Shown piece after piece: positions 1,670-23,802 of a stretch of DNA of 64,000 nt. Numbering within the stretch: position 1 is the stretch's first letter; each line of letters begins with the position of its first letter. The translations under genes were made by a program, and so were the position numbers. The notes under the pieces are model-generated. The model had not been told where the DNA came from. It worked only from the letters and a program-made list of their open reading frames with translations, and searched no databases. Origin of the DNA: an uncultured Thermoleophilia bacterium (lineage in GTDB: Bacteria > Actinomycetota > Thermoleophilia > UBA2241); assembly GCA_963715985.1 (NCBI GenBank), contig CAVQSP010000014.1, positions 608,001 to 672,000 of the forward strand, read 5' to 3'.

Positions 1670-1700
1670 CGTCATGGCACCCGACAGTGCGGAGGTCCAC

Positions 1701-3599: not shown

Positions 3600-3662
3600 T
3601 TGACCGAAGGTCAGACGGTCCGTAGTATCCAACGCATATACCGGGCGTATCGTCAGCGTATG
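3600..3662 (+). promoter_or_regulatory. Sigma-A-type promoter (TTGACC-17-TAGTAT) overlapped by four 11-bp-phased GTAT-like boxes (putative operator)
   Basis: -35 at 3600-3605, -10 at 3623-3628. Boxes at 3625, 3636, 3647 and 3658. A near-identical arrangement occurs at 17575-17636. Confidence 0.7.
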
Positions 3663-3938: not shown

Positions 3939-5585
3939 ATGAAGTCAGGGAGTGACAAAGAAGGCATCGGCAAGCGGAACCTGACACGGCGGGAGCTGCT
4001 GCAGGCCGGCGCGGTCGCGGGGCTCGGCGCCGGGCTGATCGGCACGGGTCTCGGGGCGGCGGGATGCGGGAGCAGCGACGACGGTGGCGCGAGCGCGTCG
4101 CCGTCGGCGTCGGGAGCGGCGGGCGCGCTCAAGCCCGGCGGCATCTTCACCCTCGCCACCGATCAGATGTTCCCTAAGGACAACCTCAACCCGCTGACCA
4201 ACACCACCGACGGCATCGATGCGCTCGAAGGGATGCTTCGTGAGGGGCTCGTGACCTACGACTTCACCTTCACGCCGCAGCCGCGACTGGCCGAGAGCTG
4301 GGAGTTGACCCCGGATTCCATGGAGTACACGTTCCATATCCGGCCCAACGTGACGTGGCACGACGGCACGCCGTTCACTGCGAGGGACGCCAAGTGGTCT
4401 CTCGACAGGGTCATGTCGCCAGACGGCGGGTCGGGCATGATGGACCGTCTCAGCACGAGCATCGAGAATGAGGGCGTCATCGTCGTCGACGACATGACGC
4501 TCAAGCTCAAGCTGAAGCGGCCGGACTCGCTGCTCTTGCTCGCACTCTCCAACCAGCAGTGTTACTTCACCAAGGAGAACAGCACGACGGCCGACTTCGA
4601 GAAGGGCATCGGGACCGGTCCCTTCATGCTGAAGTCATGGAACCCGGGCCAGAGCTACGAGGTCGATAAGTACCCCGGCTACTGGATGAGTGGGTACCCC
4701 GTCCTGGATGGAGTGCGCGGCGTCCAGATCCCCGAGGCCTCCACGAAGCTGCAGTCCGTGGCCTCCGGCTCGTCTAGCGTCACGCAGATCGCCTTCGACC
4801 AGCTCGCCGTGGTCAACGCCAACTCCAACCTGCAGATCACCCCGTACGAGAAGGGCATCACCTACAACGTGGTCTGCGATACCACCGTGAAACCGTTCAG
4901 CGACCCGAGCGTGCGCCGGGCCATCAAGCTCTCGCTTGACCGCAAGGTCGTGATGGACGTCGCCTACGCGGGCCAGGCCTTCGCCTCGCCGGACGCCTGG
5001 GTCGCCATGGGCGACCCCTTCATGGACGACGCCCTCACAACGGCCGCCACCACGATGGACCGGGCGAAGGCTGCGGAACTGATGACCGCCGCCGGCTACC
5101 CGGACGGCATCGACCTGACGCTCAAGGCGCCCGGCGATCCTCTGCACGGCAACTTCGCCCTGGCGATCGTCGCCGGTCTCAAGGGCTCGCCCTTCCGCGT
5201 CACGGCCAAGCAGATCCCGGCCGCGACCTACTGGGACACGGTGTGGATGAAGGACCCATTCTGCGTGGACGACTGGAACCGCCGTCACCCCGTCGAGTGC
5301 GCCGCCCTCAACATGTACCCGAACGCACCCTGGAACGAATCCAAGTGGAAGAACGAGGAGATGGCCGCGCTGCTCGACAAGGCCTACGCCTCGCAGGGCG
5401 ATGCTCTCACGCAGGCCACCACCGACGTGTGCAACTTCATGCGCGCCGGCGGTGAGGGCGAAGGCGGCAGCGGCGAGATCGTCCCCGCCTACCTGAACCG
5501 CCTGTGGACCGCCTTGAAGACGACCAAGGTGGTGCCCTGGACGTTCTCCATGCTCGACACGCGGTACTGCGGGTTCTACGCGTGA
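3939..5585 (+). CDS. ABC transporter substrate-binding protein, family 5 (Opp/Dpp-like); Tat-exported lipoprotein
   Basis: Twin-arginine TRRELL, lipobox AAGC, LAESWE...YTFHIRPNVTWHDGTPFTARD, GTGPF. Confidence 0.92.
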   Translation: MKSGSDKEGIGKRNLTRRELLQAGAVAGLGAGLIGTGLGAAGCGSSDDGGASASPSASGAAGALKPGGIFTLATDQMFPKDNLNPLTNTTDGIDALEGMLREGLVTYDFTFTPQPRLAESWELTPDSMEYTFHIRPNVTWHDGTPFTARDAKWSLDRVMSPDGGSGMMDRLSTSIENEGVIVVDDMTLKLKLKRPDSLLLLALSNQQCYFTKENSTTADFEKGIGTGPFMLKSWNPGQSYEVDKYPGYWMSGYPVLDGVRGVQIPEASTKLQSVASGSSSVTQIAFDQLAVVNANSNLQITPYEKGITYNVVCDTTVKPFSDPSVRRAIKLSLDRKVVMDVAYAGQAFASPDAWVAMGDPFMDDALTTAATTMDRAKAAELMTAAGYPDGIDLTLKAPGDPLHGNFALAIVAGLKGSPFRVTAKQIPAATYWDTVWMKDPFCVDDWNRRHPVECAALNMYPNAPWNESKWKNEEMAALLDKAYASQGDALTQATTDVCNFMRAGGEGEGGSGEIVPAYLNRLWTALKTTKVVPWTFSMLDTRYCGFYA

Positions 5586-6628
5586 CGGAAGTCCCCGACC
5601 CTTACTTCTCGGAGACTGCGCTAGCGCCCCAGGAGGACGCGACCGCCGCCCTCCCCCCCGACAAGGGGGGAGCGGCGGCGGTCATCTGGCTGTTCGTGCG
5701 TTCGCGGTTCCTGCCGGCGCTCATCACGCTCTGGCTGATCTCGATCATCGTCTTCGCCTCGACGCACGTGTTGGGCATCAACGTGGCCCGCCGCGTGCTC
5801 GGGCGCGAGGCCACCCCCGCTCAGCTGGAGGCGTTCAGCAAGGCGCACGGCCTGGACAAGCCCATCTTCGACCAGTACACGTCGTGGCTCTCGGACTTCG
5901 TCAAGGGCGATTGGGGCATGTCGGCGGCAAGCGTGCGGCCAGTGAGCGAGATCGTGGTGCCCCGCACGATCAACACGCTGATCCTCGCGCTGGCGGCCAT
6001 CATCATCGCGCTGCCGATCTCGATCATGTTCGGCATCTATCTGGCCAGACCGGGCTCGCGGGCACGTGAGCTGATCCTCTCGATAGGCAACGTCTCTCTG
6101 GCGGCCATCCCCGTCTTCGTCATCGGCATCCTTCTGATCTACGGGCTCTCGGTGAAGCTGGGATTGACGCCGGTGGACAGCATGGGCATGTCCTTCGGGA
6201 CGTGGAACGACAAGGTGGCGGCGTTCATCCTGCCCACCATCACCCTCGTCATCTCCCTGCTGCCGCACATCTCCCGCCTCACGCAGGTCTCGGTGCGTGA
6301 GACCATGACGACGCCGTACGCGCGGGCGGCAGTTCTCCGCGGACTCACGCGCCGCACGATCACCTACAGGCACCTGATGCCCAACGCCGCCGGGCCCATC
6401 ATCAACGTGGTCGCCCTCGACCTCATCTGGCTCATCGGCGGCGTCATCATCGTCGAGAACGTCTTCGGCTTTCCCGGCCTCGGGACCCTGCTCGTCGAGT
6501 CCATCGGGGCCGGCGACCTGCTCGTGGTCCAGGCGGTCGCCATGATCTGCGGCGTCCTGTTCATCGGCATCGGCATCGCCGCGGACATGCTCGTGACGCT
6601 GTTCAACCCCAGACTGAGGAATGGCTGA
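5582..6628 (+). CDS. Peptide/nickel-type ABC permease (DppB-like)
   Basis: GLDKPIFDQY, EAA-like loop YARAAVLRGL, VENVFGFPGLG. GTG start overlaps the upstream stop (GTGA). Confidence 0.9.
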   Translation: MTEVPDPYFSETALAPQEDATAALPPDKGGAAAVIWLFVRSRFLPALITLWLISIIVFASTHVLGINVARRVLGREATPAQLEAFSKAHGLDKPIFDQYTSWLSDFVKGDWGMSAASVRPVSEIVVPRTINTLILALAAIIIALPISIMFGIYLARPGSRARELILSIGNVSLAAIPVFVIGILLIYGLSVKLGLTPVDSMGMSFGTWNDKVAAFILPTITLVISLLPHISRLTQVSVRETMTTPYARAAVLRGLTRRTITYRHLMPNAAGPIINVVALDLIWLIGGVIIVENVFGFPGLGTLLVESIGAGDLLVVQAVAMICGVLFIGIGIAADMLVTLFNPRLRNG

Positions 6629-7520
6629 GATGAGCACCGTGGAGCAGGTGGTCACGACCGTCCCGACGTACGTACCCGGGCGCCAGAGCCTCTGGCGCAG
6701 TGTGCTGCGCACCACGGAGGGCAAGATCGGCATCGGGCTGGGGGCGTTCATGATCGGCCTCATCGTGCTGGGTGCCATCTTCGGGCCCACGACGGACTAC
6801 AACGCCGCGATGCCCGGCGCCGGCTCCTCGGCCGCGCACTGGTTCGGCGCGGACACGCTGGGACGCGACGTGCTGAGTCGCTTCCTTGCCGGCGGCACGA
6901 CGGTGTTGCTCATCCCGCTCATCGCGGTGACGCTTTCACTGCTCATCGGCGGCAGCCTCGGGCTGTTCGGCGCCTACTGGGGTGGCTGGCCGGACGTCGT
7001 CATCGCCAAGGTCTTCGACGTCATCCTCACGTTGCCGCCGCTGCTGATCGTGCTGGTGATCATCGGCGGTCTCGGGGCCTCCAACACCGTCCTGATCATC
7101 ACTGTGGCGCTGGTGTACGCACCCGGCCTGGGGCGGGTGGTGCGAGGCTCGGCGCAGTCGGTGATCGTCAATCCCTACGTGCTCTCCGCGCAGGCGCGTG
7201 GGGAGCGCGATCTCACGATCATCTTCCGCGAGGTGCTCCCCAACGTCTCCGGGCCCACCCTGGCCGAGTTCGGCCTGCGGCTCACCTACGGCATCCTGTT
7301 CGTGGCGACGCTCAGCTTCCTCGGTCTGGGCGTGCAGCCGCCCAGCCCCGACTGGGGACTCATGGTCGCGGAGAACCGCGGCCTGATCACAGTGGCGCCC
7401 TGGGCCACCCTGCTCCCGGCGCTCGGCATCACCGCGCTGGCCGTGGCGCTGAACCTGACTGCCGACGCGCTCTCCAGAGTCCTGGCGGGCGACGACCTGA
7501 GCCGGCTGGCGGTGATATGA
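6621..7520 (+). CDS. Peptide/nickel-type ABC permease (DppC-like)
   Basis: HWFGADTLGRDVLSR, LSFLGLGVQPPSPDWG. Confidence 0.92.
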   Translation: MAEMSTVEQVVTTVPTYVPGRQSLWRSVLRTTEGKIGIGLGAFMIGLIVLGAIFGPTTDYNAAMPGAGSSAAHWFGADTLGRDVLSRFLAGGTTVLLIPLIAVTLSLLIGGSLGLFGAYWGGWPDVVIAKVFDVILTLPPLLIVLVIIGGLGASNTVLIITVALVYAPGLGRVVRGSAQSVIVNPYVLSAQARGERDLTIIFREVLPNVSGPTLAEFGLRLTYGILFVATLSFLGLGVQPPSPDWGLMVAENRGLITVAPWATLLPALGITALAVALNLTADALSRVLAGDDLSRLAVI

Positions 7521-9445
7521 GCGCCGCCGCCAGCGAGCACGCCGGCGTCCGCCCGGCCGGGTCGTGCGACACCACGCGCCTCAGTCCTGACGGAGCCGCG
7601 CTCGTCGTCGAAGACCTCAGCGTCGGCTACCATCAGAAGGACGGCGGCGTGCTGCGTGTGGTCGCCAACGTCGATCTCAAGCTGTTCCCCGGCCAGGTGC
7701 TGGGACTCGCCGGCGAGTCGGGCTGCGGCAAGAGCACGGCCGCCCTGGCAGCCGTCGGCTACCGGCATCCCGGCGGCGTCATCCTCAGCGGCCGGTCGCT
7801 CCTCGGCGACGTCGAGTTGCTGGAGATGAAGCCGGCCGCCCTGCGCCTGCTGTGGGGCGGCCAGGTCGCCTACATCTCGCAGAACGCCGGGATGTCGCTG
7901 AACCCGGCGCTGACGATCGCGCGGCACTTCGACGAGGTGCTGAGCCGGCACGCGGGCCTGCACGGGTCCGCGGCCGCCGCGCGCGAGCTGGAACTGCTCA
8001 CCTCCGTCCAGCTGCCGGATCCCAAAGGATCCCTCCTGAGGTATCCGCATCAGCTGAGCGGCGGTCAACAGCAGCGCGTCTCGCTGGCGCTGGCCTTCGC
8101 CTGCCGTCCGGCCGTCCTCATCCTCGACGAGCCCACCACCGGGCTCGACGTCACCACGCAGACCTACATCACGGCCCTGCTGCAGACGCTCATCGCCGAG
8201 ACTCAAGTGGCGGTCATGTACGTGAGCCACGACCTGGCCCTGCTCTCGACCGTGTCCAACGACGTGGCCGTCATGTATGCGGGCGAGATGGTCGAGCGCG
8301 GGCCGGTGGCCGAGATGGTCAGGGCGCCGCTGCACCCGTACACCAACGCCCTGTTGCGCGCGGTGCCCAGCGCCCGCGCCCGGCAGTCCATCGCCGGCAT
8401 CGCCGGCGAGCCCCCCGTGAGCGTCTGCGACGACTGCTGTTCCTTCGCGCCGCGCTGCCCCTACGTGGAGGAGCGCTGCCGGGCACAGCACCCTGACAGC
8501 AGGCAGATCGAGCCACTGCGCACGTCGCGCTGCTTCCGCACTGAAGAGGTGCGCGACGAGCTGCGCATCGTCGTCGACATCGACGAGCGTGTCTCTGCGG
8601 CCCAGGTACGGTCGGCGGAGGAGGGGCGCCCATCTGACCTCCTCACGGTGGAGGGCGTGTCCTGCTACTACGGGTCGGGACGCCGCCGTTTGGCAGCCGT
8701 CAAGGACGTCTCGCTGCACCTCTCCGACGCCGAGGTGCTCGGCATCGTCGGGCTGAGCGGCAGCGGCAAGTCCACGCTCCTGCGGGCGATCTCCGGGATC
8801 CTGGAGGACTACACGGGGACGATCTCCCTGCGCGGCGAGTCGCTCGCCCACCGTGCCGTCAAGCGCCCGCGACAGCTGCGCCGACAGGTGCAGATCGTCT
8901 TTCAGGACCCTGCCTCGTCGCTCAACCCGCGGCACACCGTCAACCAGATCATCGCGCGCGCCGTCCGGCTGTTCCGCGAGGACGTGCCCCACGACAAGAC
9001 GGCGGACACCGTGGCGGAGCTCCTGGAGAGCGTGAAGCTGTCGCGCTCGTTCCTGCCCCGGTATCCATCCGAGCTCAGCGGTGGGCAGCAGCAGCGCGTC
9101 GCCATCGCCCGCGCCTTCGCCGCGCGACCGAGCCTGCTGCTCTGCGACGAGGTCACCTCGGCCCTGGACGTCTCCGTCGCCGCCACGATCATCGAACTGT
9201 TGCGCGACCTCACGAGCCAGTCCGGGACGGCCGTGCTGTTCGTCAGTCACGACCTGGCGGTGGTGCGCACCCTGGCCGACAGGGCCATCGTGATGCGCGA
9301 CGGGCGGGTGTGTGAGGAGGGGTCGACGGAGAAGCTGTTCCGCGCGCCCGAGCACCCCTACACGATCGAGCTGCTCGAGTCGATCCCGGACATCGCGGAC
9401 GTGCGCGCAGGCAGACGGCTGTTGCCGAGCGACTCCCCGGTGTGA
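7517..9445 (+). CDS. Fused double ABC ATPase (DppD/DppF-like)
   Basis: Two Walker A motifs (GESGCGKS, GLSGSGKS), two LSGGQQQR signatures, HPY motifs and a Cys-rich linker. Confidence 0.93.
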   Translation: MSAAASEHAGVRPAGSCDTTRLSPDGAALVVEDLSVGYHQKDGGVLRVVANVDLKLFPGQVLGLAGESGCGKSTAALAAVGYRHPGGVILSGRSLLGDVELLEMKPAALRLLWGGQVAYISQNAGMSLNPALTIARHFDEVLSRHAGLHGSAAAARELELLTSVQLPDPKGSLLRYPHQLSGGQQQRVSLALAFACRPAVLILDEPTTGLDVTTQTYITALLQTLIAETQVAVMYVSHDLALLSTVSNDVAVMYAGEMVERGPVAEMVRAPLHPYTNALLRAVPSARARQSIAGIAGEPPVSVCDDCCSFAPRCPYVEERCRAQHPDSRQIEPLRTSRCFRTEEVRDELRIVVDIDERVSAAQVRSAEEGRPSDLLTVEGVSCYYGSGRRRLAAVKDVSLHLSDAEVLGIVGLSGSGKSTLLRAISGILEDYTGTISLRGESLAHRAVKRPRQLRRQVQIVFQDPASSLNPRHTVNQIIARAVRLFREDVPHDKTADTVAELLESVKLSRSFLPRYPSELSGGQQQRVAIARAFAARPSLLLCDEVTSALDVSVAATIIELLRDLTSQSGTAVLFVSHDLAVVRTLADRAIVMRDGRVCEEGSTEKLFRAPEHPYTIELLESIPDIADVRAGRRLLPSDSPV

Positions 9446-9487
9446 TGGGAGCCCGCGGCCGCGACCTCGGCGCGTGGCTCTTGGGGA

Positions 9488-10600
9488 GTGAGCGTGCCTA
9501 GCCGCACGATCGTGGTCGTGGGCGGCGACACCGCCAGCTTGCTCGTCGCCGCCTGGCTCGCCGCCGCCGGCCACCAGATCGTCCTCTGGGAACTGCGCGA
9601 CGGCGCGATGGGCCCGGCGGGCGCGAGCGCACCGGGCGAGCTCATGCTCAGCGTGGCAGGGCGCGATACGGCGGTCGTGTTCGCGGGGGTCACGACCGAC
9701 GCCTTCGAGGCGCTGGCCGCCGGCGACGTGGTGGTCACCTGCGCGCCGCCGCACGCCCAACAGGCCTTCGCCGACGCGGTGCTGCCCCTCGTGGAGCCGA
9801 GGCATCTGCTGGTCCTGCCGGCCGGCGGCCTCGGCAGCCTCGCGTGCGCGAAGTGGCTGCGCGACCGGGGGCGCTGGGAGCTGCCGACCTTCGCCGAGAG
9901 CGACACGATGCCGGTCCTCGGCGATCTCGAGGGCCCGGCACGCCTGCGTGTCGACGCGGTCGCGTCCCGCTTGGGGTTCGGCGTCTTCCCGGCCGAGCGC
10001 ACCGCTGCCGCCCGGGACCCCCTTGTCGATCTGTTCCCCGGGGCCAGGGCTCACGTGCACGTCCTCGCCGCGGCGCTGGCCGGGGTCGAGCGTTTCGTGC
10101 GCGCGCCGGCGCTGGTGATGAACGCCGGCGCTTCGGAACGTGGCGGGCCGCCGGCGTCGCTGCTGGCCGACGGGTTCACCCGGGAGGTCGCGCGAGTGGC
10201 CGAGGCGCTTGACGGCGAGCGCTGCGCGCTCGCCCGGGCCCTCGGCCTTGATCTGCCGCCGGCCGCCGAAGCACTCTGCGAACGTGGTCTCAGCCCCGGC
10301 GGTGATCTCTGGGCCGCCGTTCACGGCAGCTTCGCGCTGACGCGCCCGCCGGCCGCCGGCGTGGTGCCGGCAGATCTCCAGGCCGACGACGTGTCCTTCG
10401 GAGTGCGCCTCTGGGTCGAGCTTGGCGGCGCGCTCGACGTGCCGATGCCCGTCGCGGGCGCGCTACTGACGCTGCACGATGCCGCCCGCCCGTCGACTGG
10501 ATGGGCCGGCCGGACACTCGAGGACCTCGGTCTGGCCGGCCTGAGCGGCGATGCCCTGCAGCGCTTTCTGACCACCGGGACCGGCGAACCGGACGCCTGA
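9488..10600 (+). CDS. Opine (octopine/nopaline) dehydrogenase-family protein with degenerate motifs
   Basis: N-terminal Rossmann-like IVVVGG...AAWLAAAGHQIVLW, GVFPAERT, DGERCALARALG, DDVSFG...GGALDVPMP. GxGxxG and the HP motif are altered. Confidence 0.7.
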   Translation: MSVPSRTIVVVGGDTASLLVAAWLAAAGHQIVLWELRDGAMGPAGASAPGELMLSVAGRDTAVVFAGVTTDAFEALAAGDVVVTCAPPHAQQAFADAVLPLVEPRHLLVLPAGGLGSLACAKWLRDRGRWELPTFAESDTMPVLGDLEGPARLRVDAVASRLGFGVFPAERTAAARDPLVDLFPGARAHVHVLAAALAGVERFVRAPALVMNAGASERGGPPASLLADGFTREVARVAEALDGERCALARALGLDLPPAAEALCERGLSPGGDLWAAVHGSFALTRPPAAGVVPADLQADDVSFGVRLWVELGGALDVPMPVAGALLTLHDAARPSTGWAGRTLEDLGLAGLSGDALQRFLTTGTGEPDA

Positions 10601-10637
10601 GGGCGCGGTCGGGGAACCTGGACGCGAGGAGGACAGC

Positions 10638-11645
10638 GTGATCGTGGATGCACACAACGACCTGCTGGTCGAAGTGGCCCACTTCCGCCACGAGGCGGCT
10701 CCGTTCCGCGCCCGCTGGCTGGAGCAACTGCGGCGCGGCGGCGTCGGCCTTCAGGTCTGCCCCGCGTCCGTGGACGTGAACGAGTTGCCGGAGTTCGGCC
10801 TGCGCCGCAGTCTCACCCAGATAGCGGAGTGTCACCGGGCGGCAGCCCAGGACCCGGACGAGGTCGTGCTCGTGCGCGATGCCGCCGGCCTGGACGAGGC
10901 CCTTGCCACCGGCCGGCTCGCCCTTCTCCTTTCCATGGAGGGCGCTGAGCCACTCGGCTACGACCCGGCCATGGCGGACGTGTTCTGGCTCCTCGGCGTG
11001 CGCATGTTCTCCCTCACGTGGAACCGCAGGAACCCGTTCGCGGACGGCCTCGGCGAGGCCAATGACGGTGGGCTCAGCGACCTGGGCCGGGAGCTCGTGG
11101 AACGCCTGTGCCGGCTGGGCATGGTCCTTGACCTCGCGCACGCCTCCCGGCGCACGTTCTTCGACGTGCTGGAGCGCGCGCCGGACGCGCCGGTCGTCGT
11201 CAGTCACGCCTGCTGCCGTGCCGTCTACGACATCCCGCGCAATCTGACCGACGACCAGCTGCGCGCGCTGGCCGATCACGGCGGCGTGCTGGCGGTCATG
11301 GGCATCCCGCTCGCCGTCGATCTGGAGGCGCCCTCCCTCGAGCGTGTGGCCGATCACATCGACCACGCCGTGGACGTGATGGGCGTGAGACATGTGGGGC
11401 TCGGCGCCGACTTCATGACGCAGATCGTGGAATCCGGCGCCGAGCCCGCGTTCCAGGCGACGAGCCTCATGCCTGAGGGGATGTCGTTCGCCGAGGCCGT
11501 GCCCGGGTTCAGCGGGCCGGCGGACTACCCGGCGCTGGCGGCGGTCCTCGGGGCACGGGGATACGCCGGGGAGGCGCTCGATGCCATCCTCGGCGGCAAT
11601 CTGCTGAGAGTCATCCGGGGAGCGCTGGCCGCCGGCGGCGACTGA
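10638..11645 (+). CDS. Membrane/renal dipeptidase family (peptidase M19)
   Basis: DAHND, SMEG, LTWNRRN, DLAH, VVSH, RNLTDDQL, HVGLGADF, GGNLLRV. Confidence 0.92.
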   Translation: MIVDAHNDLLVEVAHFRHEAAPFRARWLEQLRRGGVGLQVCPASVDVNELPEFGLRRSLTQIAECHRAAAQDPDEVVLVRDAAGLDEALATGRLALLLSMEGAEPLGYDPAMADVFWLLGVRMFSLTWNRRNPFADGLGEANDGGLSDLGRELVERLCRLGMVLDLAHASRRTFFDVLERAPDAPVVVSHACCRAVYDIPRNLTDDQLRALADHGGVLAVMGIPLAVDLEAPSLERVADHIDHAVDVMGVRHVGLGADFMTQIVESGAEPAFQATSLMPEGMSFAEAVPGFSGPADYPALAAVLGARGYAGEALDAILGGNLLRVIRGALAAGGD

Positions 11646-11689
11646 CGCGCGGACGCCGCGGCAGCGGCGGGGAAGGACGGCTGGACCAC

Positions 11690-12349
11690 GTGGACACGCA
11701 CCCGACCATCGCAGCCATCATCAGCGCCTTCACGGAGGCCGACTTCGACGCCGTCCCCGGCCTCGTGGAGAAGGGCCTTGGACAAGGTCTGACGGCGCAG
11801 GCTCTGCTGGATGACGGCCTTGTGGCCGGTATCCGCGACGTGGGGGAGATGTTCCGGCGCGGCGAAGTCTACCTGCCGGAGATGATGCTGGCGGCGGAAG
11901 CCTGGCAGTCCGGCATGGACGTGCTGGCGCCCCAGCTCGCCGAGCGCGCCGCCGCGGAGCCGAAGGGAACGGTGGTCATCGGCACCGTGAAGGGCGACAT
12001 CCATTCGCTCGGCAAGACCATCGTGTCCACCATGCTCAGGACCGCCGGGTTCGAGGTCGTCGATCTCGGCACCGACGTGCCGGCGTCTCGCTTCATCACG
12101 GCAGCCACCGACGCGCGTGCCACGGTGATCGCCGCGTGCGCCTTGATGACGACGACGATGCCGCAGCAGCGCGAGGTGGTGGAGCACGCCGTGGCCGCCG
12201 GGAGGCGTGACGAGCTGTTCATCATGATCGGGGGAGCCTCCACCAGCCCGGCGTGGGCCGTGGAGATCGGCGCGGACGGCCACGGGGAGACGGCTGCCGA
12301 CGCAGTGGCTCTCGCCGAGGACTTCGTCGGCCGGGTCGTGAGGAGCTGA
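11690..12349 (+). CDS. Corrinoid (B12-binding) methyl-carrier protein, MtmC/MttC-like
   Basis: Cap domain (EVYLPEMMLAA) plus DxHxxG motif GDIHSLGK, DLGTDVP, ALMTTT, IGGA, IGAD. Confidence 0.93.
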   Translation: MDTHPTIAAIISAFTEADFDAVPGLVEKGLGQGLTAQALLDDGLVAGIRDVGEMFRRGEVYLPEMMLAAEAWQSGMDVLAPQLAERAAAEPKGTVVIGTVKGDIHSLGKTIVSTMLRTAGFEVVDLGTDVPASRFITAATDARATVIAACALMTTTMPQQREVVEHAVAAGRRDELFIMIGGASTSPAWAVEIGADGHGETAADAVALAEDFVGRVVRS

Positions 12350-12351
12350 CG

Positions 12352-13780
12352 ATGCTGGGCAACCTGGAGATCTATCGCCGCGCGACGACCGGCGAGATCT
12401 GCTCGGAGAAGGACTTCGACCTGCGTCGCTTCATCCCGGCCCTGCGGAGGCTGGTGAAGGCTCACGGGATCGTCTGCGACCGCAGTACGCCGGTGCCGGC
12501 GGACGACGACCTCGCCGACCGCGTCTGGCAGGCCGGCCGCGAACTGTTCCTGGAAGTGGGGGTGTTCTGCCCCGACACCGAACGGGTCATCCGGTTCGAC
12601 GCGGCGGAGCTCGACCAGGCCCTGGCACACGCGCCGCGCCCGGTGGTGGTCGGCAGCGGACAGTTCGCGCGGACGATCCCGGTGCGGCGTCCGGAGAGCG
12701 CGACGCTCCCGTTCTTCTCGCTGGGGGCCTGCGGCGCCGGCGTGACCAGCGACGAGGTGTTCATGAGCCTCACGCAGGCGTATTGCGAGCTGCCGTACAT
12801 CGACGCCATCGCCATGCCGGCGCTCACCCGAGATCGACGGCATGACCATCGTGGCGGGCAGCCCGCTCGAGGTCGAGGGATGCGTGCGTACGGTGACGAT
12901 GGCGCGCGAGGCGACACGGCGCGCGAACAAGGCGGGAATGGGGATCGCCAACACCGTGCCGACCGGCGTGCGCTCGCAAGGGCACATCGCCGGCAATGCA
13001 GCCGCGGCCGACCAGTGGGACATGATGGAGATAGGCGGTCACGCGGAGTTCAAGGTCGACTTCGACAGCCTGAGCAAGATCGCGTACATGCAGGGCCGGG
13101 GCCGGACGATCCTCGGAGAGACGGGGCCTCTGCTCGGCGGCTATGCCGGCGGTCCCGAAGGCTGCGCCGTCGCCCTTGCCGCCTACCACTTCTTCGCCCT
13201 GCTGGTGCTCCGTGCAGCCGTGCAGCACCCGTTCACGTCGCACTTCCAGACGCAGTCCTGTACCTCGCGGGAGGCCATCTGGCTGCGCTCGGTCGCTCTG
13301 CAGGCCATCACGCGGCACAGCGACGTGCCGTGTCTGGAGTCGGGCACCTACGCGGCCGGGCCGGGCACCGAGATGAGCCTTTTCGAGGCCGCCGCGATGG
13401 CGGCTCCCAGTGTGGTGTCGGGCGGCAGCGTCGAGTCGGGGCCGACAGCGCGGGCGACGCACCTCGATCACCTCTCGCCGATGGCGAACCTCTTCGCCGC
13501 CGAAGTGGGACGCTCAGTGGCCGGCATGTCCCGCACCGACGTCAACGACCTCGTGGTGCGTCTGCTGGACAAGTACGAGGATCACCTCACCGACCCGCCC
13601 TTCGGGCGGCGCTACCAGGAGTGTTACGACATGGCCAGCCGGCAGCCGGACGCCGAGGCGAGGGCGGTGTATCGGACGGCCCGAGCGGCGGTGGCAGCCA
13701 TGGGCCTGGAGTTCCGCGACCCGCGCGTTCTACGACTGAGGACGGGCGTGAAGCGCTGCGCCGACCTACTGGAGGTGTGA
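12352..13780 (+). CDS. mtmB: MtmB-family (monomethylamine:corrinoid-type) methyltransferase without pyrrolysine; +1 frameshift at about 12828, probably a sequencing error
   Basis: RATTGEICSEKDFD, VPADDDLADRVWQAG, GVFCPDTERVIRF, GSPLEV, GMGI, EFKVD, PLLGGYAGGPEG, PFGRRYQECYD. A second +1 base near 13724 would give a natural end EFRDPAFYD* at 13739. Confidence 0.88.
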
Positions 13781-13782
13781 AG

Positions 13783-15453
13783 ATGAAGCTGACGGGAGCG
13801 CAGTACCTCGCCCGCACGCTTGAGGGCTACGGCGTGACGCACTTCTTCCACGTGCCGGCCATCATCCCGTGGACGCTTGCGCAGATGGAGGAGACAGGGC
13901 GCATCACCCGAGTGGTCACGCACGACGAACGTGCGGCCGGGTACATGGCCGACGGGTACGCGCGCGCCTCCGGGCGCCCGGGCGTGTGCGGCTGCCAGAT
14001 GATCGGGACGAACAACCTGGCGGCCGGACTGCGGGACGCCTTCATGGCGCGTTCCCCGGTGCTGGCGTTCAGCGGCGGCTCCTACGTGAGATCCCGCCAC
14101 CGCCACCAGTATCAGGAGATCGACGGCTTGCCCGTGTTCGCCCCGGTCACCAAGTTCAACGTGCAGGTCGATGACGTGACCCGGTTGCCGGACCTGCTGC
14201 GTCAGGGCTTCCGCGCCGCCACGAGTGGCAAGCCGGGGCCGGTCCACCTGGCGCTCGAGGGGCACTTCGGCGAGGAGACGGAGCTCCAGGAGGCGGAGCT
14301 CGACGATCTCGTCGAAGAGCGGTTCGCCGGCGTACCGCCGTTCCGGCCTCTGCCTCAGGCGGATCAGGTGACCGCTGCCGTCCGGCTGCTGGTGGAGGCG
14401 GAGCGCCCCGTGCTCGTCGCGGGCGGCGGCGTGCGCCAGTCCGGCGCCGGCTCCGAGCTGCTCGCGCTCGCGGAGCTTCTGTCTGTCCCGGTGGCCACCT
14501 CGCTCAACGCGAAGGACGTCATACCGGGCGACCACCCGCTGGCCCTGGGCGTCCCCGGGCTGTACCAGCGTGAGAGCGCCAACCGGGCACTCCTGGAGGC
14601 GGATCTCGTCTGCTACGTCGGCAGCCAGACCGGCAGCCAGGTGACCAGGAACTGGACGATCCCTCTTCCGGGCACGAGGGTCGTGCAGATAGACGTAGAC
14701 CCTGAGGAGCTGGGCCGGCACTACCCGAACGCCGTGTCGGTCCTCGGCGATGCCAAGCTCACGCTCGGCCAAATGGCTGAGGCCGTCGAGGCACCCGTAC
14801 GGCGGCCGGCCTGGACGGCGCGCGCCGCGGAGCTCGTGGCCGCGTGGCGCGCCTCGGTGGACGAACACGTGACCAGCGACGCGGCGCCGATGCGGCCGGA
14901 GCGCCTGCTGGGCGAGCTCGGCCGCGTCCTGCCCTCGGACAGCATCGTCGTCGCCGACACCGGCCACGCCGGCTTCTGGACGGGGACCTACCTCGACCTC
15001 ACACGACCCGGCCAGGGCTTCCTGCGGGCCGCGGGCTCGCTGGGCTGGGGTTTCCCGGCCGCGCTGGGTGCCAAGATGGCCGTCGGTGACGAGCGGTCCG
15101 TGGTCCTGTTCACGGGGGACGGCGGCCTCTGGTACCACCTCGCGGAGATCGAGACGGCGCTGCGCTGGGGCGTCAAGGTCGTCGTCGTGGTCAACGACAA
15201 CCATTCCATGAACGAGCAGATCCCCTTCTACGAGCCGATGTACGGCGGCCGGCTGCACGGGCGGCACGAGGACCTCTGGGTCTTCCGCGAGGTCGACTTC
15301 GCGGCGGTGGCGACATCGCTCGGAGCCATCGGCCGCCGCGTCGAACGGCCTCGGGACTTCGCTCCTGCCCTCGAGCAGGCCCTCGAGGCCGATCGGCTCA
15401 CTGTGCTCGATGTGCTCACCGACATCGAGGCGGAATGTCCCTGGGGCGCTTGA
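13783..15453 (+). CDS. Thiamine diphosphate-dependent enzyme, acetolactate synthase-like superfamily
   Basis: HDERAAGYMADGYAR, PGPVHL, GSLGWGFPAALG, GDG...NDN motif. GGAGGTG RBS. No regulatory subunit is adjacent. Confidence 0.9.
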   Translation: MKLTGAQYLARTLEGYGVTHFFHVPAIIPWTLAQMEETGRITRVVTHDERAAGYMADGYARASGRPGVCGCQMIGTNNLAAGLRDAFMARSPVLAFSGGSYVRSRHRHQYQEIDGLPVFAPVTKFNVQVDDVTRLPDLLRQGFRAATSGKPGPVHLALEGHFGEETELQEAELDDLVEERFAGVPPFRPLPQADQVTAAVRLLVEAERPVLVAGGGVRQSGAGSELLALAELLSVPVATSLNAKDVIPGDHPLALGVPGLYQRESANRALLEADLVCYVGSQTGSQVTRNWTIPLPGTRVVQIDVDPEELGRHYPNAVSVLGDAKLTLGQMAEAVEAPVRRPAWTARAAELVAAWRASVDEHVTSDAAPMRPERLLGELGRVLPSDSIVVADTGHAGFWTGTYLDLTRPGQGFLRAAGSLGWGFPAALGAKMAVGDERSVVLFTGDGGLWYHLAEIETALRWGVKVVVVVNDNHSMNEQIPFYEPMYGGRLHGRHEDLWVFREVDFAAVATSLGAIGRRVERPRDFAPALEQALEADRLTVLDVLTDIEAECPWGA

Positions 15454-15489
15454 CTCTGTGAAGCGCACGAACGTAAGGAGCCGGATGCC

Positions 15490-16521
15490 GTGAACACACC
15501 GACGTACGCGCCGCCTGACGGCGCCGAGGTGATCCGAACGATCGACGTCCACGCCGCCGGAGAGCCTGTGCGGGTCATCGTGGAGGGCCTCGCTGCCATT
15601 CCCGGAGCCGACATGCTGGCGAAGCGCCGCTATGCCCAGGAGCACCTCGACGCTCTCCGCCGTCGGCTCATGTGGGAGCCCCGCGGACACGCCGACATGT
15701 ACGGCGCGATCCCCACGGAGCCAGTCACCGACGACGGCGACTGCGGGGTGCTGTTCCTGCACAACGAGGGCTTCAGCACCATGTGCGGGCACGGCATCAT
15801 CGGCCTCACGAAGATCCTGCTCGAGACGGGGATGGTGACGCCCGGGGAGGGCACGTCGACCGTCCGCATCGACACGCCCGCGGGCCGCGTCGTAGCCCGC
15901 GCGACTGCGGATCGCGGGACCGTCCGGGAGGTCGTGTTCGACAACGTGCCGTCGTTCGTGTACCGGCGAGGAATCGAGGTCGGCCTCGCCGGCATCGGCA
16001 AGACCATCTGCGACATCGCCTTCGGCGGCGCGTACTACGCGTTCTGCAACGCCGCCGACCTGGGCCTGACTTTGGAGCCCGCGCAGCACGACCGCCTGAT
16101 CGAGGTCGGCAGACTCGTCAAGAAGGCGGTGCTGGCGCAGACGGCCATCGAGGACCCGGTCGCTCCCGACCTCGGGTTCCTCTACGGCGTCATCTTCACC
16201 GGTCCGCCGGCCGCGGCGGGCCACCACAGCCGCCACGTCTGCGTCTTCGCCGAGGGCGAAGTGGACCGCTCGCCCACGGGCACCGGAGTCAGCGCGCGTG
16301 CCGCCCTGCTGAGCGAGGCGGGGCAGTTGCCTGACGGTGAGCCCATCATGATCGAAAGCATCCTCGGCACATGCTTCGGCGTGGCGGTGGTGGGCCACTC
16401 CAGGGTCGGTCCGTTCCCCGCAGTGATCCCGGCCGTCTCCGGGGAGGCGTACGCGACGGGGATGAGCACCTTCTTCGTGGAGCGCGGTGACCCGCTCGGT
16501 GACGGCTTCATCTTCAGATGA
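15490..16521 (+). CDS. Proline racemase superfamily, Cys/Thr type (probable trans-3-hydroxy-L-proline dehydratase)
   Basis: IDVHAAGEP, EPRGHADMYG, MCGH, and DRSPTGTG with Thr in place of the second catalytic Cys. Confidence 0.85.
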   Translation: MNTPTYAPPDGAEVIRTIDVHAAGEPVRVIVEGLAAIPGADMLAKRRYAQEHLDALRRRLMWEPRGHADMYGAIPTEPVTDDGDCGVLFLHNEGFSTMCGHGIIGLTKILLETGMVTPGEGTSTVRIDTPAGRVVARATADRGTVREVVFDNVPSFVYRRGIEVGLAGIGKTICDIAFGGAYYAFCNAADLGLTLEPAQHDRLIEVGRLVKKAVLAQTAIEDPVAPDLGFLYGVIFTGPPAAAGHHSRHVCVFAEGEVDRSPTGTGVSARAALLSEAGQLPDGEPIMIESILGTCFGVAVVGHSRVGPFPAVIPAVSGEAYATGMSTFFVERGDPLGDGFIFR

Positions 16522-16603
16522 CCGGCGCGCGATCCATCCGCGTGCTGCCCCTCCGTCCGTTGGCGGCCCTCGCTGCCGCCGGTGGGTCGAGCAAGGACGG
16601 GAC

Positions 16604-17578
16604 GTGAGGTACGCCGGCCTCTGTACTTCCGTGCTTGAGGCGATCGGCCAGACACCGCTCGTCGAGCTCGGCAGGATCGGCGTGCCGTACGGCGGCCGGA
16701 TCCTCGCCAAGCTCGAGTACCTGAACCCCGGGCACTCGAAGAAAGACCGCATCGCCCTGGCGATGATCGAGGAGGCCGAGCGCTCGGGTGCGCTAGCTCC
16801 CGGGCAGACAGTGGTCGAGCTCACGAGCGGCAACTGCGGTACGGGCCTCGCCATCGTGTGCGCCGTGACGGGTCACCCTTTCGTCGCGGTCATGTCGCGC
16901 GGAAACACCATCGAGCGCGCCCGCATGATGGCTGCGCTGGGCGCCGAGGTCGTGCTCGTCGACCAGCTGCCAGGCTCGACTCCAGGCCAGGTCTCGGGCG
17001 GGGACCTCGACCTCGTCGAGCGGGAGACTCTGCGGGTGGTGCGCGAGCGGGGCGCCTTCCGCGCCAACCAGTTCGAGCTGGCCGCCTGCGTCGATGCGCA
17101 CTACGCCCATACTGCTCGCGAGCTCCTCGAGCAGTCTGGGGGAAACGTGACCGCCTTCTGCGATTTCGTCGGCAGCGGCTCCACGTTCACGGGGTGCGCG
17201 ACCGCTCTCAAGGAGTACGACCCCTTGATCTGCTGCTACGTGGTCGAGCCGCGCGGGGCCGCCGTGCTCTCGGGACGGGAGCTCCAGAACCCCAGCCATC
17301 GCATCCAGGGCGGCGGATACGCACGCGCGCACCTTCAGCTCATGCGCACCGACCTGGTCGATGGCTATCTGCAGATCAGCGACGAACAGGCGATCGCCAC
17401 CGCCCGCGATCTTGCGCGGCGGGAGGGCCTGTTCGCCGGGTTCAGCTCCGGAGCGAACGTGGCCGCCGCTCTCCAGCTGCTCAAAGGACCGCACCGCGGC
17501 GGCACCGTGGCCGTGCTCCTCTGCGACAGCGGGATGAAGTACTTGAGCACCGATCTGTGGCCCTCGGCGATCGATTGA
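16604..17578 (+). CDS. PLP-dependent cysteine synthase/CBS family protein (divergent)
   Basis: IGQTPLV, KLEYLNPGHSKKDR, TSGNCG, HRIQG, EGLFAGFSSGA, CDSGMKYLST. Start inferred at GTG 16604. Confidence 0.88.
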   Translation: MRYAGLCTSVLEAIGQTPLVELGRIGVPYGGRILAKLEYLNPGHSKKDRIALAMIEEAERSGALAPGQTVVELTSGNCGTGLAIVCAVTGHPFVAVMSRGNTIERARMMAALGAEVVLVDQLPGSTPGQVSGGDLDLVERETLRVVRERGAFRANQFELAACVDAHYAHTARELLEQSGGNVTAFCDFVGSGSTFTGCATALKEYDPLICCYVVEPRGAAVLSGRELQNPSHRIQGGGYARAHLQLMRTDLVDGYLQISDEQAIATARDLARREGLFAGFSSGANVAAALQLLKGPHRGGTVAVLLCDSGMKYLSTDLWPSAID

Positions 17579-17636
17579 CGGGTGAGCGCATGACTCTTAG
17601 TATCTCGCTCGTATACACGCTGCATCCGGAGATATC
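17575..17636 (+). promoter_or_regulatory. Sigma-A-type promoter (TTGACG-17-TAGTAT) with 11-bp-phased GTAT-like boxes
   Basis: -35 at 17575-17580, -10 at 17598-17603. Boxes at 17600, 17611, 17622 and about 17632. Confidence 0.7.
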
Positions 17637-17731
17637 GCGCAGCAGGCGCGACCAGCCGGGGCAATCGACTGCGGATCCTCGGAGGAGTCTCTCCTCTTCG
17701 ACCGACAGCACGCGGACGGGGGGTTGATCTG

Positions 17732-18688
17732 ATGAACCAGTACATGTGGGCCTACGCCGACCCGTATCAGTGGATGGAGCGCACGGCGAAGTTCCCGCCG
17801 ATGATCGTCACCTGCGCGGTGGACGGCGGCATCCAGGGCAAGGAGAGTCATCCGGCGCTTCCCGAGCTGCCCGACGAGATCGCCCTGGAGTGCCAGGCGG
17901 CCTACGAGGCCGGCGCATCGATCGTGCACATCCACGGTCGGGACCCCGACAACTTCACCAACTGCACCGATGACCCCGAGGTGTACCGGGACATCCTTGG
18001 ACGCGTGCGCGAGAAGTGCCCCGAGCTGATCATCAACATCACCACAGGCGGCGGTCCCACGACCACCGACGAGGGCCGAGTGGCCATCCTCGACGCCGGG
18101 CCAGAGATGGCGACCCTGAACCTCGGTCCGGACATGGAGCGCTTCGAGCTCGCGGAACGTAAGCCGCCGCTGCCGCACCCCCGCGAGGCGATGGTCGTCG
18201 ACATGGTCATGCCGTTCACCTACGGCTTCATCGACCGGCTCGCCGGCGTGATGCTGGAGAAGGGCATCAAGCCGGAGCTCGAGATCTACCAGCCCGGCCA
18301 GTACTGGGTGAGTCGCGGGCTGGCGGAGCGGGGCCTCATCAAGCCTCCGTACTCGCACCAGTTCGTCATGGGCGTGCAGACGGCCATCTACCCGACACCC
18401 TGGAACGTGCTGGCGATGCTGAGCGAACTCCCCGACGACTCGGTGTTCACGGTCGCCGCCATCGGCAAGTTCCAGTGGCCCCTCATCACCATGGGCATCA
18501 TCCTCGGCGGCAACGTGCGCGTGGGCCTCGAGGACAACCTGTACGAGCGACGCGGCCGCAAGCTGACGGGGAACGGCGAGGCGGTACAGAAGGCCGTGCG
18601 CCTCGCCCGGGAGTTCGGCCGCGAGATCGCCACGCCGGCCCAGGCGCGCGAGATGCTGGGGCTGTCGGCCACACCAAGCAGCTACTGA
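17732..18688 (+). CDS. Beta-keto acid cleavage enzyme (BKACE/DUF849; 3-keto-5-aminohexanoate cleavage family)
   Basis: IVTCAVDG, EAGASIVHIHGR, TTGG, KPELEIY, GGNVRVGLEDN, ATPAQAREMLGL. Confidence 0.93.
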   Translation: MNQYMWAYADPYQWMERTAKFPPMIVTCAVDGGIQGKESHPALPELPDEIALECQAAYEAGASIVHIHGRDPDNFTNCTDDPEVYRDILGRVREKCPELIINITTGGGPTTTDEGRVAILDAGPEMATLNLGPDMERFELAERKPPLPHPREAMVVDMVMPFTYGFIDRLAGVMLEKGIKPELEIYQPGQYWVSRGLAERGLIKPPYSHQFVMGVQTAIYPTPWNVLAMLSELPDDSVFTVAAIGKFQWPLITMGIILGGNVRVGLEDNLYERRGRKLTGNGEAVQKAVRLAREFGREIATPAQAREMLGLSATPSSY

Positions 18689-18703
18689 GCGGGGGAGTCA
18701 GTC

Positions 18704-19943
18704 ATGGAGGACGAAGAAGTCACGCGAGCTCTTCGAGCGTCTCGCGAAGGTCATGCCCGGTGCGAGCACCCGTACCGTCACTCACTACGACCCCTTCCCG
18801 ATCGCGCTCGAGCGCGGACAGGGCTGCCGTCTCTGGGACGTCGACGGCAACGAGTACATCGACCTGCTCAACAACTACACCGCCCTCGTGCACGGTCACA
18901 ACCACCCGGCCATCGTTGAGGCCCTCGCTCGCACGGCGACGGGGGCGCTTATCCGCGGCCGTGCCGGCGCCCATCGAGCTGCAGGGCGAGTTGGCGTAGC
19001 GCGCTGTGCGCGCGCACGCCCTCCATCGACCGCGTGCGCTTCACCAACTCGGCCTCGGAGGCCGTGATGATGGCTGTCCGCGTAGCCCGCGCCTACACCG
19101 GGAAGGACGACTTCATCATGCCGGCCAACGGCTATGGCGGGGGCTGGGACCAGGTGATGCTGGCCGGCACAGACGAGGAGCATCCAGAGGGCTCCCAGGG
19201 CAACGTACCGGCAGGCATCCCGAAGATCCTGACCGAGGTCGTCCACTTCGTGCGCTTCAACGACCTCGGGCACTTGGAGCAGGTGCTGGACGACGCACGG
19301 CCCCACCACCGCGGCCGTCCTGCTCGAGCCGATCCTTGGACACACCGTCGTGCCCGGCGACCCCGACTTCGTCCGTGCCGCCCTACGCCTGGCGCACGAG
19401 CACGGAGCACTCCTGATCCTGGACGAGACCATCACCTCGCGCCTGTACGTGGGCGGCTGGCAAGCCGAACACGGCATTGAGGCCGACCTGACCACTCTCG
19501 GCAAGACGATCGGCGGCGGCACACCGGTCGGTGCGTTCGGCGGCAAGGAGCACGTGATGCGCATCCTCGACCCGCGCGCGGACGACGCCCTCGCCGCGCA
19601 TGGGACCATGAACGGCAGCCCGCTGTGCATGGCCGCCGGCTGCGCCAGCCTCGACCTGCTGACGCAGGAGGCCATCGACCGCATCAACGGCATGGGCGAC
19701 TTCCTCACCTCTGAGCTCGACGTCATCGGCCGCGAGGCCGGCGTGCGCGTGCACAACTACGGTTCTCTGCTCCAGGTCATGGCCCCCGACATCCTCGCGT
19801 TCCACCGAGCCTGCCTCGAGGAAGGGCTGTACATCGCCCCGCGCGGCAGCATGAACCTGTCCACCGTGATGGACGACGAAGTCCTCGGGGAGATCGCTGC
19901 GGCCTGGGCACGCGCCGTGGAGCGGACCAGCACCGCGCACTGA
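18704..19943 (+). CDS. Class III aminotransferase (glutamate-1-semialdehyde aminomutase-like); four +1 frameshifts
   Basis: Reconstructed METKKSRELFERLAKVMPG..., WDVDGNEYID, RFTNSASEA, AAVLLEP, ILDETIT, DLTTLGKTIGGG. Shifts near 18709, 18945, 18997 and 19295. May be a pseudogene if the indels are real. Confidence 0.8.
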
Positions 19944-20001
19944 AGGTCCGGCCCACGAGCAGTCCGTCCAGTCCAGAACTGACGAAGGAGAGCGCGTCAC
20001 G

Positions 20002-21447: not shown

Positions 21448-21520
21448 CGCCGGCGCGGGCCTGGGCCGAGGGCCAGGACTGAGCGCCGGCGCCGGAGCAA
21501 GATCTTCGAGGAGGCGGAAC

Positions 21521-22372
21521 GTGGCGAAGAAGAGCGTCTTCGACCTGCACGAGATGAAGCGCGCCGGCGAGCAGATCGCCTGGCTCACCGCCTACGACTA
21601 CCCGACGGCGCAGTTCGAGGAGGCGGCCGGCGTCGACATGATCCTCGTCGGCGACTCGCTGGGCATGTGCGTCTACGGCTACCCCGGCACCGTCCCGGTG
21701 ACGATGGACCAGTGCCTCGTGCACAGTGAAGCGGTGCGCCGCGGCGCCCCGGACACCTTCGTCCTCGGCGACATGCCGCTGGGCAGCTACCAGGCCTGCG
21801 ACGCAGACGCCGTGCGCAACGCCATCCGCTTCCTGAAAGAGGCGAACGTCGACGCCGTCAAGCTCGAGGGCGGCGTGCGCACGCTCTCCCGCGTCACGGC
21901 GATCCTCGCGGCCGGCGTCGCCGTCTGCGGCCACATCGGGCTCACGCCGCAGTCCTCGGGGCAGCTCGGCGGGCACAAGGCGCAGGGCCGCACCCTCGCC
22001 TCGGCCCAGCTCGTCGTCGAGGACGCCCGCGCCCTCTACGAGGCCGGCGTCCAGCTCCTCCTCGTCGAGGCCGTGCCCCCCGAGGTCGCCGCCTTCATCG
22101 CCCGCGAGCTGCCCATCCCCGTGCTCGGCATCGGGGCGGGGGCGGACGTTGACGGGCAAGTGTTGATCGTCAGCGACGTTCTCGGCACCTTTCAGGCGTT
22201 CACGCCGAAGTTCGTCAAACGGTACGCCGACCTCGCCGAGGTCGCGACGTCGGCCTTGCGGGAGTACGTCTCCGACGTGAGGAGCGGAGCCTTTCCGGAG
22301 GAGACTCACTGCTACCGCATGCTGGACGGCGAGCACGAGCGGTTCGCCGCCTGGGCGCGGGAGTCCCGATGA
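21521..22372 (+). CDS. panB: 3-methyl-2-oxobutanoate hydroxymethyltransferase
   Basis: LTAYD, ILVGDSLG, GDMP, VKLEGG, GHIGLTPQ, GIGAG...DGQVL. Confidence 0.93.
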   Translation: MAKKSVFDLHEMKRAGEQIAWLTAYDYPTAQFEEAAGVDMILVGDSLGMCVYGYPGTVPVTMDQCLVHSEAVRRGAPDTFVLGDMPLGSYQACDADAVRNAIRFLKEANVDAVKLEGGVRTLSRVTAILAAGVAVCGHIGLTPQSSGQLGGHKAQGRTLASAQLVVEDARALYEAGVQLLLVEAVPPEVAAFIARELPIPVLGIGAGADVDGQVLIVSDVLGTFQAFTPKFVKRYADLAEVATSALREYVSDVRSGAFPEETHCYRMLDGEHERFAAWARESR

Positions 22373-23595: not shown

Positions 23596-23802
23596 CCACC
23601 ATCCCGAATCCGGCACCTCGCGACCTCGAAGCACCGCCGGTCAGGGCCGGCTGCGATCCGGCGGCGACCACAGGACACACCAGGTCGAACCTATGGTTAG
23701 CCTCTGTTGCATCGGACTCCCTGGGGAGCGACGCTGTGAGGCGTCAAGTGGAGCCACTGCCCCGGGCAGCTCGTGCGGGGCCGAGCGCAGAGGAGACGGT
23801 CG

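Follow-up and report, generated by a model that had tools for sequence, protein, structure and literature searches.

Homologues of the methyltransferase MtmB that do without pyrrolysine (Pyl) have been known for years, and one of them, MtqB of Methanococcoides methylutens Q3c, has been characterised (Kashyap et al. 2026, PMC13044021). With tetramethylammonium, choline, or monomethylamine (MMA) as donor, MtqB methylates cob(I)alamin at 37, 42, and 11 nmol/min/mg, respectively, and shows zero activity with TMA or glycine betaine; because it turns over MMA at that last rate, even MMA activity survives without Pyl. The nitrogen of its docked substrate lies about 1 Å from the nitrogen of the Pyl adduct, and its clade sits near the Pyl MtmBs in a published tree of 1,061 sequences, the rest of which have no assigned function (PMC13044021). 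The MtqB clade has a pocket of Met, Cys, and aromatic residues. Our literature search, which reached few subscription journals, returned no other characterised Pyl-free MtmB. The first-pass annotation of the locus described here had known of no established substrate for such proteins, a statement overtaken by MtqB, which demethylates tetramethylammonium, choline, and, weakly, monomethylamine (PMC13044021).

In 'Ca. Formimonas warabiya', the available parts of PMC9768040 report a non-Pyl MtmB, Ga0180325_111810, as the most induced protein on dichloromethane, with no amine added. CdmB, in the passages available from PMC13222342, is not described as an MtmB homologue. The non-Pyl members of the MttB family (MtgB, MtpB, MtcB, MtyB, and MthB) follow a logic that may also apply here, in which a paralogue without Pyl takes a methyl group from a larger N-methyl compound and hands it to a corrinoid protein.

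The window that we analysed is a stretch of 64,000 nucleotides (69.7% GC) from an uncultured Thermoleophilia bacterium. At its centre of interest are a gene for an MtmB-like protein and the corrinoid-protein gene that precedes it.

11690..12349, forward strand: corrinoid-binding protein of the MtxC type (Pfam B12-binding), with the DxHxxG motif intact (DIHSLG, residue 103)
12352..13739, forward strand: mtmB-like MT1 gene, Pyl-free, 461 aa if intact (from Pfam MtmB, PDB 1L2Q, and the reading frames)
12947..12949, forward strand: GCC codon of Ala199, at the position of M. barkeri Pyl202
12950..12952, forward strand: Asn200, at the position of M. barkeri Gly203, invariant in 111 of 111 aligned homologues
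13028..13120, forward strand: Glu226 and Glu256, which align to M. barkeri Glu229 and Glu259

The window protein resembles MtqB in belonging to the MtmB family, in lacking pyrrolysine, in being encoded next to a cognate corrinoid gene, and in its expected MT1 role. It differs in its setting: MtqB is an archaeal enzyme that supplies coenzyme M and methanogenesis and has QMA and choline as substrates, whereas the window gene is actinobacterial and lies in an amino-acid-catabolic cluster. With Ga0180325_111810 it shares the character of a bacterial Pyl-free MtmB for which a role outside MMA demethylation is proposed (PMC9768040, available parts); that protein, however, is induced on dichloromethane, and its function is there only proposed.

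Both halves of the gene, divided as they are between two frames, match Pfam PF05369 (MtmB), with E values of 2.5e-24 and 2.3e-49 and scores of 86.4 and 168.9 bits against a cut-off of 25. The first 159 codons correspond to profile positions 4–151 and the second frame, from about 12833, to positions 158–450, so that the profile is covered from 4 to 450. When mtmB is read through the first break, phmmer finds M. barkeri MtmB (1L2Q/1NTH) at an E value of 2.5e-60. An intact relative of 461 aa, P0002, is 98% identical (449/457) to the window protein; NCBIfam has no model that matches P0002, and the ESM Atlas offers generic MtmB and BKACE cluster names only. The mtmB start codon (ATG at 12352) follows the corrinoid-gene stop, which ends at 12349, after a gap of 2 nt, as first annotated.

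A single indel had been claimed for this gene. Comparison with P0002 places a first +1 indel at about 12832–12833, and there is a second +1 indel besides, at about 13724, beyond which the homologous AFYD-stop C-terminus resumes in the next frame and ends with TGA at 13737–13739. Because this second indel shifts the frame, mtmB ends at 13739 and not at 13780, where the first-pass annotation had ended it, and the C-terminal extension to 13780 is an artefact. After correction the protein has 461 aa, the length of most close homologues. Programmed frameshifting can be ruled out because the homologues, from 98% identity down, are intact single frames of 461 aa.

Both indels are probably assembly errors. 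We consider it improbable that the window copy is a real pseudogene within an otherwise functional clade, even though two indels fall in mtmB itself and four of the five confirmed breaks in the window lie inside this cluster (two in mtmB and two in the class-III aminotransferase gene). The fifth splits carB, which lies outside the cluster, and the assemblies of the related loci L001, L006, and L007 likewise have frameshifts scattered in other cluster genes. Only 6 substitutions separate the window protein from intact P0002, and other homologues show each of them; measured against L001, dN/dS is about 0.27 ahead of the first break and about 0.12 after it, with no relaxation downstream. The carB gene (33199–36397, in the pyrimidine operon) is split across frames by one frameshift; at 27798–29124, PAS and LuxR lie in overlapping frames, possibly through another.

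In the phmmer alignment, Ala199 stands opposite residue X202 of 1L2Q/1NTH (GMGI-A-NT versus GMGV-X-GP), ungapped on the N-terminal side, and a 111-sequence profile gives the same register. Alignment to the MtmB family and to the sequence of the M. barkeri structure thus leaves the Pyl site where the first-pass annotation had put it, at an alanine encoded by GCC (12947–12949). A one-residue gap lies 1–3 positions C-terminal of Ala199; judging from the alignments, a register shift that would put Asn200 at the Pyl site is unlikely. Position 202 has no in-frame TAG, in keeping with the earlier statement that mtmB contains none: the sole TAG between 12352 and 13780, at 13032, is out of frame. TAG ends 6 of 49 hand-picked genes. 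In a search for Pyl machinery, the window yielded no tRNA, and none of the scanned ORFs was annotated as pyl.

The model of P0002 (pLDDT 96.2) superimposes on 1NTH with a TM score of 0.95, a Z score of 58.9, and an rmsd of 1.4 Å over 451 residues. The next-best structural family is that of MttB-type chains (Z 23.5), and the non-Pyl MttBs differ from the window protein as a separate family, at Z ~23 and 10–12% identity to the model. As modelled through P0002, the fold of the window protein is the MtmB TIM barrel, which together with the Pfam and 1L2Q matches upholds the original call of an MtmB homologue. Ala199 comes immediately after a short strand (197–198) in the model, and according to the available parts of PMC9842639 a β-strand of the barrel anchors Pyl202 in MtmB; the assignment of the Pyl site to Ala199 is confirmed at the level of sequence and secondary structure.

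The likeness to MtmB1 of M. barkeri (1NTH, 1L2Q, 1TV2) comprises the fold, 29% identity, the equivalents of E229 and E259, and a corrinoid partner. The differences are Ala in place of Pyl202, the lack of an amber codon, the replacement of E205 by Pro, Q333 by Ser, and Y335 by Thr in the pairwise alignment, and the new residues Asn200 and Glu361; Asn200 is a candidate new pocket residue. In the original M. barkeri MtmB structure paper, Glu229 and Glu259 are said to flank Pyl and the amine. Our literature search returned nothing on the role of Glu259 in MtmB, and the available text of PMC9842639 is silent on it. Among the aligned matches listed, the 55 clade members all have the equivalent of Glu226 and all have Glu361, and 42 of 55 have that of Glu256, which is Gly or Ala in L002, L004, and L006, loci that share the cluster. 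Among full-length distant representatives, in a gappy alignment, the E229 equivalent occurs in fewer than 5 of 121 and the E259 equivalent in 8 of 121. Because acidic pocket residues are kept, a cationic amine would be favoured; no obvious carboxylate-binding residue was identified in the pocket.

One such amine is monomethylamine itself, used plainly and without Pyl. The E229/E259 equivalents are present and MtqB does have low MMA activity (11 nmol/min/mg, PMC13044021), but a family-5 ABC importer and carbon-skeleton enzymes, encoded around mtmB, are not needed for MMA, and the aligned pocket positions 205, 333, and 335 have all changed, which makes this use very improbable here. A substrate other than monomethylamine, as had been suggested from the start, is plausible by analogy with MtqB.

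Absence of Pyl is not unusual in this family, and Pyl-free MtmBs are widespread. Our homologue search found 251 proteins and listed 120, of which 111 were aligned and 9 partial ones left out. Among these listed matches, the 55 with at least 55% identity have Ala (40), Ser (11), Pro (3), or Gly (1) at the Pyl site, and the other 56 aligned homologues have Val (37), Met (18), or Ile (1). At the DNA level we used 72 related genome loci, from the best 80 of 269 confirmed matches, in which each of the 99 gene segments that cover the site carries a sense codon there and none has TAG (Val 48, Met 39, Ala 5, Ser 2, Leu 2, Phe 2, Cys 1); the scan patterns came from the Pyl-free alignment and were not designed to retrieve Pyl-type genes. 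Among 50%-identity representatives there were 924 matches at E ≤0.001, with highly varied pocket segments.

In a quick, midpoint-rooted tree of 69 rows, none of them a Pyl MtmB, the proteins with a small residue at the Pyl site group together in one clade (19 rows, SH-aLRT 100) with members from Actinomycetota and Anaerolineae. As far as sequence can tell, the small residue at the Pyl site is a clade trait and not a one-off, and the window gene falls in a separate-looking clade to which the searched literature assigns no substrate. The actinobacterial sequences nest among Chloroflexota ones in this midpoint-rooted tree, and transfer may be the cause. The closest locus among those from the best 80 of 269 matches belongs to a Thermoleophilia MAG (80%), and by this and its GC content the window has an actinobacterial look. 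Elsewhere in the family, tandem arrays of 2–4 Pyl-free mtmB paralogues with differing pocket residues occur in L008, L016, L018–L020, L027, L042, L049, L052, and L053, that is, in Chloroflexota and one unclassified MAG. In Anaerolineae loci (L003, 1627–4422; L005, 11334–12722; L028; L029) an enolase gene stands beside mtmB, and several of these four add a glycerate-kinase-like (DUF4147/MOFRL) gene, a different catabolic context.

The genes from the importer to putA all lie on one strand.

3939..9445, forward strand: family-5 (peptide/opine-type) ABC importer, with binding protein, two permeases, and fused ATPase (Pfam)
9488..10600, forward strand: opine-dehydrogenase-like protein, with GxGxxG and the aligned His lost
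10638..11645, forward strand: M19 dipeptidase family protein (Pfam E 3.8e-82)
13783..15453, forward strand: ThDP enzyme, acetolactate-synthase-like, with no counterpart in the 72 related loci (best 80 of 269 matches)
15490..16521, forward strand: proline-racemase-family, 3-hydroxyproline-dehydratase-type enzyme (best PDB match 6R76, E 7.9e-112)
16487..17578, forward strand: PLP enzyme resembling cysteine synthase, in none of the 7 nearest loci
17732..18688, forward strand: BKACE/DUF849 β-keto acid cleavage enzyme (Pfam E 1.3e-85)
18714..19943 (start approximate), forward strand: class-III aminotransferase, HemL/β-transaminase-like, with two frameshifts, intact in L001
20002..21447, forward strand: Pyl-free MttB-family methyltransferase (Pfam MTTB E 7.9e-64), with Tyr316 at the Pyl334 position
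21521..27699, forward strand: panB, class-I/II aminotransferase, and putA; L001 alone again has panB and a full putA

Most of this gene order recurs in L001, L004, L006, and L007, and the first-pass annotation was right to call the neighbourhood informative: importer, catabolic enzymes, BKACE, and a Pyl-free mttB belong to a cluster that is conserved in Thermoleophilia and Actinomycetes. In the 7 loci of the clade, compared with the 65 others (of which only 38 are at least 10 kb long), BKACE occurs in 5/7 versus 0/65, the racemase family in 4/7 versus 0/65, mttB in 4/7 versus 7/65, and class-III aminotransferase in 4/7 versus 2/65; these counts are not independent because, of the five informative loci, four come from Actinomycetota and have one cluster in common. 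The fifth, L002 (Anaerolineales), is organised separately, and its BKACE is divergent and its racemase-family gene of the Ser/Cys kind. The ThDP, cysteine-synthase-like, and hydantoinase genes occur in 0/7 clade loci. A hydantoinase/oxoprolinase A+B pair (44–3491) lies just upstream of the importer and is found in 0/72 related loci.

A corrinoid-gene homologue is present in 61 of the 72 related loci (best 80 of 269 matches). The corrinoid protein falls below the cut-offs of the NCBIfam MtbC/MtgC-like models, and gene adjacency suggests its pairing with mtmB. The binding protein of the importer finds its best PDB match, AgaA (6HLX), at an E value of only 9e-35. GxGxxG and His are also lost from the opine-dehydrogenase-like proteins of L001 (~7008–8126) and L004 (3723–4829), so that this protein, kept in several genomes, is possibly a non-catalytic or NAD-independent offshoot.

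The upstream regions of the cluster add a further common element.

3600..3641, forward strand: promoter-like TTGAC-18-TAGTAT and, after it, an operator-like TATAC element, heading the importer/corrinoid/mtmB unit
17575..17616, forward strand: second promoter/operator-like copy, heading the BKACE, aminotransferase, and mttB unit

These are the only two promoter-like sites in 3400–23300, a count that is not significant by itself (0.9 ± 0.8 in shuffles). The promoter-like site with its TATAC element recurs at syntenic places in L001 (12453), L004 (7987), L006 (12418), and L007 (2130 and 16295). A pattern built from those sites matches the window twice where 0.07 matches would be expected, a contrast that is inflated because the pattern was devised after the fact, and it also matches 15 unrelated loci. 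A gene for a GntR/FCD regulator lies next to the cluster in L001, L005, and L006, though not in the window. The shared motif suggests one regulon of two units, with the corrinoid gene and mtmB in one and BKACE, the aminotransferase, and mttB in the other.

On balance, we lean slightly towards reading the window protein as a Pyl-independent corrinoid N-demethylase (MT1) for an imported N-methylated compound of the amino-acid type, whose corrinoid protein is probably shared with MttB. We infer the enzyme activity, the amine substrate, the order of steps, and the methyl acceptor; what they build on is the MtmB fold, alanine at the Pyl site, adjacency to the corrinoid gene, the conserved cluster, and the shared upstream motif. 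An N-methyl amine is favoured by analogy, since MtqB, the sole characterised Pyl-free MtmB, acts on such amines. The mouth of the MtmB barrel would bind the compound without covalent activation by Pyl, the substrate itself taking up the space that Pyl has vacated, and one N-methyl group would pass to Co(I) of the adjoining corrinoid protein. A second methyltransferase, encoded elsewhere, would carry the methyl group to tetrahydrofolate or homocysteine; neither the Pfam-scanned ORFs of the window nor the recurring neighbour families include a methyl-acceptor methyltransferase or a corrinoid activator. In aerobic marine bacteria, the available parts of PMC12478193 have the methyl group routed to methionine synthesis. 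The co-regulated Pyl-free MttB would probably use the same corrinoid protein and may take another methyl group off the same molecule, with MtmB perhaps acting after it. The demethylated skeleton would then be degraded either by the 3-hydroxyproline-dehydratase-type enzyme and PutA or by β-transaminase and BKACE.

The setting also bears on two other kinds of methyl donor. A tetramethylammonium/choline demethylase of the MtqB kind would match what the only characterised Pyl-free MtmB does (PMC13044021), and pyrrolysine is absent from the window protein too. We think this quite unlikely, as the cluster combines a peptide/opine-type importer with amino-acid catabolism and not with choline-processing genes, and the MtqB clade lies near the Pyl MtmBs (PMC13044021), whereas the window protein and M. 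barkeri MtmB share 29% identity. We give equally little credence to an O- or S-methyl donor (a methoxy-aromatic, methyl-sulfonium, or methylthioether compound). The pocket varies greatly across the family, the Pyl-free MtmB of Formimonas tops induction on dichloromethane with no amine added (PMC9768040, available parts), and the window unit includes a cysteine-synthase-like gene; against this, that gene is found in 0/7 nearest loci and the acidic pocket residues are kept.

Within the favoured reading, an N-demethylase for an amino-acid-type compound, the neighbours point to two skeletons, hydroxyproline and a β-amino/β-keto acid, and no single substrate fits them all. The hydroxyproline side begins with the proline-racemase-family protein at 15490..16521, which has the Cys/Thr dyad (MCGH, DRSPTG) that the available parts of PMC4113996 give as the criterion for a dehydratase of trans-3-hydroxy-L-proline; its best PDB match, 6R76, is T. 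litoralis T3LHypD (PMC9309405, available parts). It scores 345.2 bits against the equivalog cut-off of 540 of NCBIfam NF045511. If MttB and MtmB demethylated (3-hydroxy)proline betaine in two steps, MtmB would act on N-methyl-(3-hydroxy)proline, the dehydratase would yield pyrroline-2-carboxylate, and proline would go to PutA. The Cys/Thr dehydratase-type gene recurs in L001, L006, and L007, a different, Ser/Cys member of the superfamily stands beside the Anaerolineales gene in L002, and putA is found in the window and in L001. MtpB, of the MttB family, uses proline betaine (PMC13080624, available parts), 3-hydroxystachydrine appears to be a plant or dietary metabolite, and the pyrrolidine ring would resemble that of Pyl.

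We nevertheless judge this two-step use of (3-hydroxy)proline betaine unlikely. An OCD/MLD2 pyrroline-2-carboxylate reductase is missing from the window and the nearest loci, the opine-dehydrogenase-like protein is degenerate, without its nucleotide-binding motif, L004 has no dehydratase between mtmB and BKACE, and BKACE and the β-transaminase would go unexplained. Nor does MttB have R312 and H348 of MtgB in register: in a distant pairwise alignment (E 6e-41), the R312 position is Thr, with Arg one residue on, and there is a gap at H348. These two residues form the carboxylate clamp of MtgB (PMC13080624, available parts). The window MttB is only distantly related to MtgB (E 6e-41) and MttB (E 5e-36); it represents a distinct Pyl-free branch that is 78–86% identical across four actinobacterial loci. 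That the two corrinoid steps would fully demethylate a cyclic amino-acid betaine such as 3-hydroxystachydrine is, in our estimation, rather unlikely. MtmB would there take a tertiary N-methyl amino acid, and the pyrrolidine ring of the substrate would replace the pyrroline ring of Pyl. The literature that we searched, with few subscription journals, contained no corrinoid enzyme that does without Pyl and uses a tertiary N-methyl amino acid or N-methylproline.

The other skeleton is suggested by BKACE, the most constant and best conserved partner of the MtmB subclade (78–89% identity in four actinobacterial loci, 52% in L002). Here the substrate would be an N-methylated β- or γ-amino acid (of the β-alanine-betaine, N-methyl-β-amino acid, or carnitine type), which after demethylation would be transaminated or oxidised to a β-keto acid for BKACE, with an ADP-forming ligase conserving the acyl-CoA. 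The class-III aminotransferase resembles the β-transaminases 4AO9 and 2YKU (E ~1e-66), and an acyl-CoA ligase family gene is found in L001, L002, and L006. However, HemL-type enzymes score about equally, BKACE groups are promiscuous according to the available parts of PMC4922564, PMC11961710, and bioRxiv 2023.02.15.528638, BKACE and the transaminase sit in the mttB unit and not in that of mtmB, and the dehydratase would have no part to play. We judge a β- or γ-amino acid substrate unlikely as well.

In the family tree of 1,061 sequences, just one Pyl-free MtmB has been given a function (PMC13044021). The clade described here is accompanied by an importer that is conserved, by catabolic enzymes, and by a common upstream motif, and so it comes with a short list of candidate substrates and an intact protein to assay. 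A positive assay would also bear on the idea that Pyl and bulky substrates fill the same space. If our reading of the window protein as an N-demethylase for amino-acid-type compounds is true, corrinoid demethylation of amino-acid derivatives would extend to Actinomycetota and Chloroflexota of soil and sediment.
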